64,000 nt of DNA from Minisyncoccota bacterium (GCA_041659005.1 JBAZZD010000003.1:2650-66649); one strand, 5' to 3'; numbered from the stretch's first letter, positions 22,666-39,744 are shown. Made by a program: numbers and translations. Notes: generated by a model not told the origin, from the letters alone.

Positions 22666-23463
22666 ATGAGGCAAAAACTTGGTCAACATTTTCTGAAAAA
22701 CGAACAGACCCTTTCTTTTATTGCACGAAACTCAAATATTAAACAAAACGATTTCGTTATTGAAATTGGCTCTGGGCACGGGGAGCTAACAAAATATCTC
22801 ATTTTAGAAACCAAAAAAAACAACGCGCGTCTGTTGTGTATTGAAAAAGATCCTACATTTTTTACGCCAATTAAAATACTCATTGGGAAAAATAATGAGC
22901 TTTTGAAGGGAGACGTACGAGAAATATTACCCCTAATTAATAGAAAGTTAGGAGGACATCCATATGTAATTATAGGAAATATCCCATATTACCTTACTTC
23001 ATTTCTCTTTCGTATCATAAGTGAATTAGAGACAAAGCCGCACACTATAACACTCTTAATTCAAAAAGAAGTTGCTGAACGAATCAAAGAAAAGCCGCCA
23101 AAACAAAATCTCCTCTCTGCAATTATTGCTTCATTTGCTGACGCAAAAATTGTTAAGCGCGTTTCCCGTGGGCAGTTTTCACCACCACCAAAAGTAGACT
23201 CGGCAGTTGTTCAACTAACCACTCACAACCGCTATACACAAAAGGAAATAGACATTTATATAAAAACTGCAAAAATATTATTTTCACAACCAAGAAAAAC
23301 TATTTTTAATAACGCACGCTGCCACAAGGAGGAGATACAATTGTCAGAAAGCACGATACGCGATATATTTTTCGCTGCAAAAGTAAAAGAAAGTGATCGT
23401 GCGCAGGCACTAACCCCAAAAACCATGATGGTACTTGCAAAAATGTTGTATAATGAAATGTAA
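22666..23463 (+). CDS. rsmA: 16S rRNA (adenine1518/1519-N6)-dimethyltransferase RsmA/KsgA
   Basis: LGQHFL start motif, EIGSGHGELT SAM-binding motif. Confidence 0.85.
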   Translation: MRQKLGQHFLKNEQTLSFIARNSNIKQNDFVIEIGSGHGELTKYLILETKKNNARLLCIEKDPTFFTPIKILIGKNNELLKGDVREILPLINRKLGGHPYVIIGNIPYYLTSFLFRIISELETKPHTITLLIQKEVAERIKEKPPKQNLLSAIIASFADAKIVKRVSRGQFSPPPKVDSAVVQLTTHNRYTQKEIDIYIKTAKILFSQPRKTIFNNARCHKEEIQLSESTIRDIFFAAKVKESDRAQALTPKTMMVLAKMLYNEM

Positions 23464-24209
23464 TGAGGAAGAAAAAAGTCCTCGCATTTGTGGTGGTTGC
23501 TATAGGCGTCTCATGTTCGGCGTATCTTTTGTTTTCAAACTCGAACGCGGGAGCATCTTCTCTAACAATCGCCGGCTCTGAACGGGCCGACGCGCGTTTT
23601 ATCACCTCAAATGAGGCGCTTCCCTTATTAAATGATCCAACATTTAACGCAACAGATCAGGTTATTAGGGATTACGAACAAGCAATTTTTGAATACAACA
23701 GAGGGAAAAAAAGTGGGGACACCGCACGACTTCCCAATGATGCTGATATAGAGAATATGATTAGCAAATATACAACTCAAACGTTTGATTTTCAAAAATA
23801 CACCGAAAAAGACATAAAAATAAGTAAGAGCTCGTCACTTGGCGAATTAACAACATATTTAGAAAAGGTAAAAAATGAGAATGATGAAGCAAAAAGAACT
23901 GCCCCATCAAATATTGTTTCTGCGATTGGATTGTTTGTTTCCGAAAAAAACGCGGAAGAAGTTGGAAAACATATTTCCGCCCAATCGGAGTTTATCAATG
24001 CACTCCTTAGTATGCCCGTTGTTCCCGAATGGAAGGCCTTTCACTTACAATTATTAAATAACGCGGAGGAAAAACGTTTTCTCTTAAAAGTTATTTTTGA
24101 AAACCAAGAAGATCCAATAAAGGTGGTTTCTGCGGTTAAAAATATTGAAAGTGCGTTAATAAAAGAAGATACAATTTGGAAGGCCGCACTGGAAACCCTA
24201 AAAAAGTAA
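23463..24209 (+). CDS. hypothetical membrane-anchored/secreted protein (first gene of T4SS-like locus)
   Basis: N-terminal TM anchor, no recognisable domain. Confidence 0.4.
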   Translation: MRKKKVLAFVVVAIGVSCSAYLLFSNSNAGASSLTIAGSERADARFITSNEALPLLNDPTFNATDQVIRDYEQAIFEYNRGKKSGDTARLPNDADIENMISKYTTQTFDFQKYTEKDIKISKSSSLGELTTYLEKVKNENDEAKRTAPSNIVSAIGLFVSEKNAEEVGKHISAQSEFINALLSMPVVPEWKAFHLQLLNNAEEKRFLLKVIFENQEDPIKVVSAVKNIESALIKEDTIWKAALETLKK

Positions 24210-24210
24210 T

Positions 24211-37618: not shown

Positions 37619-37767
37619 TATTATATCTCATACTTCGAGTTGCGGACACCCTAAAAGCAGCAAACAGAAACCCACAAACAAAGGGTTGGGGATATACCTA
37701 AAAAGTTGTGTTTAAAAATTGAGTATAATAAGAAGGTAGGATAATTTGACCGTCTAAAAATATAACA

Positions 37768-39165
37768 ATGAATGGAAGCCCAATAAAAAAACTTTATACC
37801 TTATTCTCTTTTTTTATTATTTTCGGAACACTTTTTTTGCCTTTGCTTGTTGGCGCAAAAGAACCGACTAAGTTGCATTTGGTTTTTGAGCCACCATGTA
37901 TTGCAAACACAGGGCCATTGTCGTTCCTAGGTCCTTGTACTCCGATTGAAGACATACAAACATACATCGTTCGTTTGTATCAATTTGCAGTAGGAATATC
38001 AGGAATTGTAGCAGTAGGAATGATTGTATATGGTGCGATTATAATCATAATAAAATCAGAAAATGTCTCTGCAAAAAGTGAGGGGAGACAAATCATACAA
38101 GATGCCTTATGGGGAGTATTATTGCTCTTTGCTTCGTATTTATTACTACAGTCAATAAATCCAGACCTAGTGAAGCTGAAAGATCCATCAGCAGCACCGA
38201 TTGCAACATCCACATTAACACAGGGGACGTTAAGTCAAATTTCATCAAGTACATGCGGGATAGCGACTGGTATTCCAGCACTTTCAGACAACCCAACAAA
38301 AAGCTATAGCACCACCACAGAACAAGAGCCAAATAACTTTTGTGGTCTTAGGAGGGTCTTACTACTACAAGGTGGAGAAATCACTGATAATGGAGCAGAA
38401 AGTAAAAATTATTACTATGAAAATGAAACATATCCCGCAAATACACTTGTGTGGACATACCCGTATTATTTAAAAGAAACAACTCCGTCAAGCACTGCGA
38501 AATGTATTATTTATGCGATAAGGGAGCCGGCTCCTGAGGGCGAGAAGGCGGAAACAAGATTGGTTGATTTAAATGAGGGAATCACTCCGTGCTTGCTTGA
38601 TGATATTCCAACATCAACAATAAAAACAACGTTCGGTCTTGATAAGACAGAACCAGTGAAACAACTACCGGGGTGGGTGTGGGGGAATGATAAAGCGGGG
38701 AAAGCGGCGGCGGCAAAATGTTCTGGTATCTGTCGCGGTCCGATGACTACTGGGTCGTGCGCAATAGAAAACCTAAAAAAAACATCGTGGAAAAACGAGA
38801 GTGACACGGTGATAGCACAGGCATCAAGTATTTGTGCGAATGAAAGTGGTGGAGACGAAACTCTTGGAAGTGGTATGGATAAATGCAACCTAACTTCAGA
38901 AGATGACAGATTAGGGGAAACGGTATCTTGGGGCCTCTTTCAGATAAATATGTCTGCACATACTCCAATTGGTGGCATTGTTTGTGCGGAAAGCGCGGTA
39001 ACCCCACTTTACACATCAAAAAACCATTGGTGCACACCAAAATCAAATTATACTCCTTGTATGAACGCAACAATAAATGCAGAAAAAAACTTGGAAAAAG
39101 CATATATGATTTACAGAAGTGGGGGATGGAATCAGTGGGGAGCAAATTGTAAGTGTAATTTTTAA
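37768..39165 (+). CDS. VirB2-like pilin-domain protein fused to lysozyme-like lytic transglycosylase (VirB1-like) domain
   Basis: Same N-terminal module; C-terminus has SLT/GH23 motifs ES (ANESGG), GLFQIN, AYMIYRSGGWNQW and many Cys. Confidence 0.55.
   Translation: MNGSPIKKLYTLFSFFIIFGTLFLPLLVGAKEPTKLHLVFEPPCIANTGPLSFLGPCTPIEDIQTYIVRLYQFAVGISGIVAVGMIVYGAIIIIIKSENVSAKSEGRQIIQDALWGVLLLFASYLLLQSINPDLVKLKDPSAAPIATSTLTQGTLSQISSSTCGIATGIPALSDNPTKSYSTTTEQEPNNFCGLRRVLLLQGGEITDNGAESKNYYYENETYPANTLVWTYPYYLKETTPSSTAKCIIYAIREPAPEGEKAETRLVDLNEGITPCLLDDIPTSTIKTTFGLDKTEPVKQLPGWVWGNDKAGKAAAAKCSGICRGPMTTGSCAIENLKKTSWKNESDTVIAQASSICANESGGDETLGSGMDKCNLTSEDDRLGETVSWGLFQINMSAHTPIGGIVCAESAVTPLYTSKNHWCTPKSNYTPCMNATINAEKNLEKAYMIYRSGGWNQWGANCKCNF
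37876..38268 (+). repeat. 393-bp perfect direct repeat (copy 2)
   Basis: Identical to 35411-35803. Confidence 0.9.
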
Positions 39166-39744
39166 ATGAAAAGGAATATTTTAATCATTTCAATTGTCGT
39201 CTTTGTTGTTGCAATAGCCACATTTTTTCTTTTCCGCAACAAAAAGGACAACATAATAATCTCAGAAGCTCCAAAATCTGTGGCAACAACAACAGAACCA
39301 ATTATTGAACAACCAAAAGAAACACAAGAAAGCACCACAGTAAATAGTGGAGCAGAAGCAACAAAACCAGAGGAACCTTTTATAAAACCAGAAACCGACC
39401 GCTTTGACATAAAAACAAACACGGGCATCGTCTCAGTTGTAAATGTATATAAAAAGTCTGTTGGGGATGGAGGATTCAATGGAACAATTTTTAAAGATAA
39501 TGATTTGTATTTTATTGCTTACTATCCGAGCCCAGAAGGATTTATTATAAGTATTCGCAGCACCAACACAGAAAAAGTTCGCCTAACAGCAGAAGGGGAT
39601 TTTATTGAAACATTAAAAATCAGCAAAACAGATGCGTGCAAATTAAATGTTTCTCTTTCTGTTCCAATGAGTATAGACGAAAATCTTTCTGGGCAAGATT
39701 TTGGATTAAGTTTTTGTCCAAATGGGAAGGCGTTTCCAAAATAA
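39166..39744 (+). CDS. hypothetical membrane-anchored secreted protein
   Basis: N-terminal TM, Thr/Glu-rich linker. Confidence 0.4.
   Translation: MKRNILIISIVVFVVAIATFFLFRNKKDNIIISEAPKSVATTTEPIIEQPKETQESTTVNSGAEATKPEEPFIKPETDRFDIKTNTGIVSVVNVYKKSVGDGGFNGTIFKDNDLYFIAYYPSPEGFIISIRSTNTEKVRLTAEGDFIETLKISKTDACKLNVSLSVPMSIDENLSGQDFGLSFCPNGKAFPK

Follow-up and report, generated by a model that had tools for sequence, protein, structure and literature searches.

A non-conjugative type IV secretion gene cluster of the Patescibacteria type beside dnaA in a Minisyncoccota bacterium, with a candidate role in host contact

We analysed a 64-kb stretch of DNA from a Minisyncoccota bacterium (GCA_041659005.1 JBAZZD010000003.1:2650-66649; hereafter the window, with all coordinates counted from its first letter) that carries a cluster of genes resembling a type IV secretion system (T4SS) at 23463-39744. 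Judged by its sequence, this cluster is a known Patescibacteria-clade, MPF-FATA-derived, non-conjugative T4SS; it is real but not new, as such systems were described between 2023 and 2025. The cluster comprises 13 open reading frames (ORFs) on the plus strand and one on the minus strand, and a first-pass annotation of the same DNA had placed the boundaries of this co-oriented run exactly. We found VirB4 with an adjacent TrsD, together with PrgI, VirB6 and VirB2 arrays, at a dnaA/ksgA site; the features of a conjugative element (relaxase, coupling protein, mobile-island signature) were not found within the window. All tested defining features of Patescibacteria T4SSs were therefore present, and the core interpretation of the first-pass annotation was right but constitutes a rediscovery: the missing relaxase and coupling protein, the VirB2 arrays and the position at dnaA, which it had implied to be novel, have all been published (PMC10633639, PMC12102498).

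For comparison we used related virB4 loci (L001-L085), 80 of which were fetched additionally with one genome per species. Orthologues of the window proteins were mapped in them by jackhmmer, the 39 loci with full flanks were used for counts, and L005 served as the closest relative. The ATPase of the cluster is a VirB4-type protein of 583 amino acids (aa) of the Patescibacteria/MPF-FATA lineage (31456..33207, plus strand). It matches Pfam P-loop_TraG at 1.2e-27 and the NCBIfam model conju_CD1110 (MPF-FATA, CTn2-type) at 1.1e-111, with 374.5 bits against a curated cut-off of 325, and Walker A (SGAGKS) and Walker B (IIDEAW) motifs are legible in its translation. A homologue search returned 8000 proteins at E<=1e-10; the best 120 of these 8000 are 74-100% identical and 581-595 aa long, save one truncated 552-aa entry, and those that bear a source name come from Paceibacteria-type metagenome-assembled genomes (MAGs; Jorgensenbacteria, Brennerbacteria and others). 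The window VirB4 is identical to a protein from a "Candidatus Paceibacterota" MAG. By these comparisons it is related to MPF-FATA and groups with Patescibacteria homologues.

Next to virB4, a 218-aa TrsD-like protein (30522..31178, plus strand) corresponds to the VirB4 N-terminal domain encoded as its own gene. It matches NCBIfam TrsD (4.4e-8) as well as VirB4 models in their N-terminal regions, its orthologues carry PF26593 (TraC-like), and the two proteins share out the CD1110 VirB4 model, the 218-aa protein covering positions 2-116 and the 583-aa VirB4 positions 183-733. TrsD is a separate gene in 36 of the 39 full loci and fused to VirB4 in the other three. What had been annotated as "VirB4 pieces", that is, as fragments, thus reads as a conserved two-gene arrangement of TrsD and a 583-aa VirB4 that is common to thousands of Patescibacteria, and not as a broken gene. 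We also considered that VirB4 had recently been split by the GIY-YIG insertion described below, and rejected this, as insert-free relatives likewise have a 583-aa VirB4 and a separate TrsD. A single TrsD-VirB4 ORF (769-842 aa) does occur in 5 of the 85 loci (L025, L030, L049, L055 and L056); split and fused forms therefore alternate within Paceibacteria.

The membrane components agree with this picture. A PrgI family (VirB3-like) protein with two transmembrane (TM) segments (30013..30519, plus strand) matches PF12666 at 1.9e-7, its 32 bits exceeding the gathering cut-off of 27, in line with its annotation as VirB3-like. The 899-aa extended VirB6-like polytopic membrane protein (26144..28843, plus strand) has about eight hydrophobic segments at residues 25-358, within its first 360 aa, and a 500-aa K/E-rich tail that is 41% charged, the same architecture that the first reading had noticed. 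TrbL/VirB6 (PF04610) is matched by 6 of its 53 orthologues (best 1.1e-6) and TrbL_4 by one, and TrbL_3 is on record for the orthologues in L001, L003 and L005, so that its VirB6 identity is assigned at the family level only. The VirB2-like pilin triplet expected at 10.3-11.6 kb was recovered as three divergent genes (161, 106 and 127 aa; 10324..11555, plus strand) 12 kb upstream of the cluster, matching PF18895 at 2.7e-9, 8.2e-9 and 4.8e-9, each over the gathering score. Profile searches thus gave significant matches for VirB4, VirB3 and VirB2, and for VirB6 through its orthologues. Directly after the triplet, a tRNA-Leu(TAG) at 11739-11823 overlaps the ORF call of a PMT-family glycosyltransferase (11745-13130), and the true start of the latter must therefore lie further downstream.

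The lack of conjugative functions was assessed by scanning all non-nested ORFs of at least 100 aa in the window against Pfam. In line with the first reading, the scanned ORFs of the 64-kb window contained no relaxase family and no VirD4/TcpA-type coupling protein, VirB4 being the sole TraG-P-loop/AAA_10 protein. The setting of the cluster points the same way. It is flanked by comM (19632-21158, 2.3 kb upstream, and present as annotated), an M23/LysM peptidase gene and ksgA (22579-23463) on one side, and by jag, yidC, rnpA, dnaA (41616-42995) and dnaN on the other. The order comM-M23-ksgA-cluster-jag-yidC-rnpA-dnaA-dnaN is also found in L001, L003, L004 and L005, and identical flanks occur at loci of relatives whose VirB4 is 98%, 95% and 77% identical. 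Synteny across related Patescibacteria, which the first-pass annotation had proposed to compare, was indeed conserved: core gene order was collinear in 39/39 full loci drawn from different candidate orders. GC content is even (0.36-0.40), and a repeat search of the window found no repeats bounding the cluster. Because the housekeeping flanks and the gene order are constant among related loci, we regard the cluster as a fixed chromosomal, vertically conserved feature near oriC, and neither an island nor a conjugative element.

The same comparison bears on the "hypotheticals" of the cluster. Among the 39 full loci, PrgI is present in 39, the VirB6-like protein in 37, the pilin-module protein in 36, the 362-aa family in 35, the 654-aa family in 30, the 230-aa and 391-aa families in 29 each and the 248-aa family in 25. 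The hypotheticals are thus conserved parts of the locus and not cargo, because they are kept at fixed positions in the full loci. They had been put forward as novel structural or effector candidates; as conserved core genes they fit the structural half of that proposal, and variable effectors fit worse. Promoter and terminator scans gave no excess over shuffled expectation, the counts being at or below it, and an Rfam search found three tRNAs and nothing else.

These features match what has been reported for the group. In the saccharibacterium S. epibionticum, Wang et al. 2023 (PMC10633639) found a T4SS of unusual make-up (SEML1_0006-0019) that is closest to Gram-positive conjugative systems and has no recognisable coupling protein or relaxase, and whose genes, together with a pilin array, are essential for epibiotic growth by transposon sequencing. 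Surveying 3,035 genomes, Quinonero-Coronel et al. 2025 (PMC12102498) found 2,425 VirB4s that form a Patescibacteria clade nested in MPF-FATA, with TrsD as the most frequent partner and with PrgI-type VirB3, VirB6 and VirB2 arrays common; the T4SS genes are often near dnaA, dnaN, rnpA, ksgA and rpmH, notably in Paceibacteria. A 2025 review counts the Patescibacteria T4SSs among the newcomers that are by now established, and offers a pilus conduit as a speculation (PMC12857230).

Two genes in the 3' part of the cluster encode VirB2-like pilin modules with C-terminal extensions: a 514-aa protein with a LAS/M15-type zinc peptidase-like C-terminal domain (35303..36847, plus strand) and a 465-aa protein with a Cys-rich C-terminal domain bearing lysozyme/lytic-transglycosylase-like motifs (37768..39165, plus strand). 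The module consists of a signal peptide and two TM helices. Its T4SS_pilin matches in these two proteins (5.6e-4 and 1.8e-4) are both under the gathering score, and 60 of the 61 members of the module family match T4SS_pilin, the best at 1e-12. The extensions behind it are highly variable, with whole proteins of 99 to 2113 aa among related loci. We therefore take the module to be a conserved cassette at the N-terminus, to which C-terminal passengers of variable kind are joined; this is a new detail. Differing passengers can be seen, for example, at L063 14282-20623, L042 2346-6041 and L078 12322-20463.

The first-pass annotation had called both proteins pilin/cell-wall-hydrolase fusions. The pilin half stood; for the 465-aa protein the hydrolase assignment is by motif reading only, from ESGGD and GLFQIN motifs read by eye in a domain that had no match in Pfam or PDB, phmmer against PDB included. 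For the 514-aa protein, the C-terminal family has conserved SxHYxGxAxD and HIH motifs, its profile matches the Zn-site region of Hedgehog N-domains (1.2e-3) and M15C peptidases (E ~1), and Pfam gives HH_signal at 0.13; we consider it LAS-type peptidase-like with moderate confidence. The 465-aa protein is orthologous to a 491-aa gene product of L005. That locus has no orthologue of the 514-aa C-terminal domain, the 514-aa gene being an extra paralogue relative to L005, and by this comparison the pilin-hydrolase gene has been duplicated in the window. Along the two fusion genes, ~380 nt (35411-35790 and 37876-38255) are 100% identical with flanks of only ~60% identity, which points either to a gene conversion that recently affected the pilin module or to an artefact of the assembly. 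A further shared segment (36158-36304 and 38545-38691) is 89% identical. In addition, a 37-nt direct repeat (86% identical; 36965-37001 and 37738-37774) brackets a minus-strand gene for a 188-aa protein; its second copy enters the 465-aa start codon, and the first therefore looks like a duplicated leader left after the 514-aa gene.

The remaining proteins form the accessory set of the cluster. They had been described as secreted or membrane proteins, which holds for most of them, as they carry a signal or TM segment, but not for the 362-aa protein, which has neither. The first cluster gene (23463..24209, plus strand) encodes a 248-aa protein with one signal/TM segment at residues 6-24, beyond which it is predicted to be all-helical. 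It had no Pfam, NCBIfam or PDB-profile match, and its single-sequence AlphaFold2 (AF2) model was unusable, with a predicted local distance difference test (pLDDT) score of 41. The 654-aa secreted protein (24211..26175, plus strand), encoded directly upstream of virB6, has a signal-like segment at residues 4-22 and a conserved Cys-containing core at ~140-440 with invariant Cys208, Cys234 and others. At residues ~24-59, 4 of its 36 orthologues match DUF4141 (best 1.9e-7), a domain known from Bacteroides conjugative-transposon proteins whose genes lie between traJ and traG. Searching again for homologues with the profile of the 654-aa family brought up the same 14 proteins, and the AF2 model from the 14-sequence alignment has a mean pLDDT of 54, with residues 490-650 at 80-92 and a confident three-helix bundle at the C-terminus. 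Foldseek of this model against PDB gave nothing specific, only generic helical bundles at E >= 0.13. VirB5 or VirB8 chains were not among the PDB profile matches of the 248-aa and 654-aa families, for which the AF2 models were poor; PDB profile searches with the 248-aa, 654-aa, 362-aa and VirB6-like families returned coiled-coil or chance matches only. As a lead only, the 654-aa protein is possibly a VirB5/TraI-like stalk or tip protein, its gene standing at the usual virB5 position.

Between virB6 and prgI, the 362-aa protein (28867..29955, plus strand) has no signal peptide and no TM or hydrophobic segment; its N-terminal ~100 aa form a conserved domain, which is followed by a long tail of low complexity or disorder. 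It had no family or PDB match (Pfam, NCBIfam, PDB profile) and is probably cytoplasmic. Directly after virB4 we found a degraded pseudogene, the remnant of a gene for a small two-TM membrane protein (33208..33446, plus strand) and a further new detail: the counterpart in L005 encodes 180 aa (11755-12297), and the window retains just a 55-aa ORF and scattered similarity to the L005 gene. The 188-aa protein mentioned above, a two-TM membrane protein encoded on the strand opposite to the cluster (37052..37618, minus strand), has relatives by jackhmmer directly after virB4 in L003, L004, L061, L071 and L080, and is weakly similar to the L005 180-aa protein (BLASTP E 0.007). Next comes a 230-aa secreted protein with an N-terminal hydrophobic segment (33447..34139, plus strand), whose family profile weakly matches Hoc and Ig-type chains (E ~0.01) and which probably carries two Ig-like beta-sandwich domains; in L078, three giant relatives of it (727-1002 aa) stand in tandem. 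The 391-aa protein (34141..35316, plus strand) is anchored by one N-terminal TM segment, and its family profile matches TolB in PDB at 1.3e-11, followed by WD40 propellers, which identifies it at the profile level as a TolB-like beta-propeller, likewise a new detail. The last gene (39166..39744, plus strand) encodes a lineage-specific 192-aa bitopic protein with one TM segment, an orthologue in L005 only among the related loci, and a weak SpoIIIAH match below threshold.

What might such a machine do? We think it probable that this non-conjugative Patescibacteria T4SS assembles a pilus or stalk that serves as a host-contact conduit. TrsD/VirB4, docked via PrgI on the VirB6 platform, would pull pilin-type two-TM proteins from the membrane, and the extracted pilins would polymerise to form a short pilus or stalk that crosses the wall of the cell itself. 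Peptidoglycan, either the cell's own or that of the host, may be opened locally by the pilin-anchored peptidase-like and lysozyme-like domains, and the TolB-like, Ig-like and 654-aa proteins could form an extracytoplasmic scaffold or tip. The resulting structure would act as a contact conduit to the required host cell, with proteins passing out or host molecules passing in. In Gram-negative systems, VirB4 is known to act in extracting pilins and in building pili (R388 structure). Pilus or stalk assembly would accordingly be the best-supported activity of the cluster by analogy, because VirB4/TrsD is the only ATPase in the locus.

Several points weigh against this explanation. To our knowledge, no monoderm T4SS has ever been seen to form a pilus. 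The 899-aa VirB6-like protein itself has no Pfam, NCBIfam or PDB-profile match, both hydrolase-like domains are without a significant direct family match in Pfam and PDB, and no VirB8-like protein was identified in the cluster. The essentiality data come from Saccharimonadia, a class other than Paceibacteria, with partly different accessory genes. Finally, the genome could carry a VirD4-like gene beyond the 64 kb of the window, and VirD4 homologues do occur elsewhere in most Patescibacteria genomes (PMC12102498).

An effector exporter is a possible but rather unlikely alternative to pilus or stalk assembly. It would deliver proteins, including cell-wall hydrolases, into or onto the host, with a coupling ATPase encoded elsewhere or by a Sec-dependent two-step route as in Bordetella Ptl. 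The N-terminal signal or TM segments on most accessory proteins fit two-step export, the passengers behind the conserved pilin module differ between lineages (99-2113 aa), and effector delivery has been speculated upon (PMC11665869, PMC10633639). However, the locus has no coupling protein and no effector-immunity pairs were recognised in it, and the fixed, conserved order of the hypotheticals suits structural parts over effectors.

A bolder version of the pilus reading seems doubtful to us: a Paceibacteria-specific extracellular module would replace the VirB8/9/10-type parts and build a pilus or stalk that pierces the host wall, with its subunits themselves delivering the hydrolases. Its inferred members would be the 248-aa, Cys-rich 654-aa and Ig-like proteins, the TolB-like propeller and the pilin modules with their hydrolase passengers. 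If true, hydrolase-delivering pilus subunits would be a T4SS mode of action undescribed for any system.

We consider it quite unlikely that the cluster is an import machine like Helicobacter ComB or archaeal Ced, taking up DNA, nucleotides or host macromolecules. The window lacks a relaxase and coupling protein, comM is syntenic in relatives, VirB4 weakly matches the CedB DNA-import model (3.7e-11, far below cut-off) and the DNA-uptake idea is in print (PMC11665869, PMC12857230). On the other side, competence in S. epibionticum needs ComEC and type IV pili, and T4SS essentiality is independent of ComEC (PMC12857230); no VirB8, VirB9 or VirB10 (ComB-type) or CedA-type components were detected in the window. 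The adjacency of comM is weak evidence because unrelated housekeeping genes share its neighbourhood. Of the earlier suggestion that the apparatus served DNA uptake or cell-cell contact and not conjugation, the non-conjugative part is therefore upheld by synteny, but the specific link to DNA uptake found no support.

That the cluster belongs to, or is left over from, an integrative conjugative element with relaxase and coupling protein beyond the window is very improbable, and we rejected this origin on the synteny of related loci: VirB4 is closest to conjugative MPF-FATA models and a tyrosine recombinase gene lies at 13127-14017 (minus strand), but this gene is 9 kb away, past PNPase, comM and other core genes, the uniform GC content and absence of bounding repeats speak against an element, only 109 relaxases occur in 3,035 Patescibacteria genomes, 15 of them near virB4 (PMC12102498), and the same housekeeping position at oriC is held in 39/39 full loci from many lineages. 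A PilB/GspE-type ATPase (T2SSE 2.7e-116) is encoded at 53408-55084 (minus strand), 14 kb downstream of the cluster, and would fit a type IV pilus system of its own encoded in this part of the genome.

The most novel item came up beside the main analysis: a GIY-YIG mini-element of 273 nt, inserted exactly between the trsD stop and the virB4 start (31183..31455, plus strand). Its ORF (31199-31459) encodes an 86-aa GIY-YIG domain protein (6.6e-17), and its ends are 12-14-nt inverted repeats, ATCCCGTTAGAGAC and GTCTCTAACGGGAT, at 31182-95 and 31444-57. ATGA flanks the element on both sides as a 4-bp duplication (whole region 31179-31459); the right ATGA holds the GIY-YIG stop codon and supplies the virB4 start. 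The element is absent at L001, L005 and L006, and the empty site in L005 reads TAA-ATGA-AAATATC. From these comparisons it is an insertion and no part of the T4SS, and appears to insert at ATGA start/stop junctions such that translational coupling through the start/stop overlap is kept.

Its right-end 21-mer (including ATGA) was found in at least 120 metagenome contigs (loci L086-L205), against ~2 matches expected by chance, a rough estimate that assumes ~10^12 bases in the collection. Among the matches listed, the left repeat lies upstream in 110 of 125 right-end occurrences, and the copies fall into three size classes: ~118 nt (48 copies) and ~190 nt (20 copies), both without a GIY-YIG ORF and resembling miniature inverted-repeat transposable elements, and ~276 nt (39 copies, the GIY-YIG ORF intact in 36), with three more copies outside these classes. 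In the same matches, ATGAAT stands immediately 5' of the left repeat in 68 of the 110 copies, and the right-end ATG mostly opens a long ORF. An ORF-less copy occupies the trsD/virB4 junction of L009 (9876-10004), a species with a 77% identical VirB4, and L010 (2130-2540) has tandem full and ORF-less copies ahead of prgI. Within the window, another ORF-less copy at 14018-14119 directly adjoins the start codon of the tyrosine-recombinase gene (minus strand) and folds with a long closing stem (z = -3.4). The 14-nt inverted-repeat motif occurs five times in the window at <=2 mismatches, compared with 0.23 expected; partial motifs also lie at 21159-21172 and 47157-47170, and an exact 8-mer search added a core copy at 8899. 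A literature search found no description matching this element, which may interest mobile-DNA specialists more than the T4SS cluster itself.

Few machines are known on which the epibiotic way of life of this very large and mainly uncultured bacterial radiation depends, and the Patescibacteria T4SS is one of them. The window adds no new kind of system; what it contributes is a clear and well-conserved instance from Paceibacteria whose parts are defined, and among these the TolB-like propeller, the Ig-like protein, the pilin-anchored putative hydrolases and the VirB5-position candidate could guide structural work in that class.

Set against known systems, the cluster shares with Bordetella Ptl, Brucella VirB and Helicobacter ComB a VirB4 apparatus, a locus without VirD4 and a non-conjugative function. 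Those systems, however, are diderm, with VirB7/9/10 outer-membrane cores, VirB8 and mostly VirB11, none of which was detected in the window. With MPF-FATA systems (pCF10 Prg/Pcf, pGO1 Trs, C. difficile CTn2 CD1110) it has in common VirB4, TrsD, PrgI and VirB6-type proteins, as well as, in putative form, cell-wall hydrolases with N-terminal membrane anchors. Unlike them, it is without a relaxase, a coupling protein, an oriT context and a PrgB-type surface adhesin; it encodes VirB2-like pilins, which MPF-FATA systems lack; and, in contrast to their mobile members, it is chromosomal and vertically inherited. The likeness is greatest to the Patescibacteria T4SSs (PMC12102498, PMC10633639), which also have a ~583-aa VirB4 with a separate TrsD-like gene, PrgI/VirB3, an extended VirB6 and a pilin array, peptidase-like and lysozyme-like genes 3' of virB4, and a locus without relaxase or coupling protein that adjoins ksgA, rnpA, dnaA and dnaN. 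Compared with S. epibionticum, whose own accessories are two VirB6-like giants, an NTF2-like protein and a PEGA protein, the window has a different accessory set (the 248-aa, 654-aa and 362-aa proteins, the Ig-like 230-aa and the TolB-like 391-aa protein). Its pilin triplet lies 12 kb off instead of within the cluster, its putative hydrolases are fused to pilin modules, and it additionally carries the GIY-YIG insertion, the pseudogene and the duplicated fusion gene.

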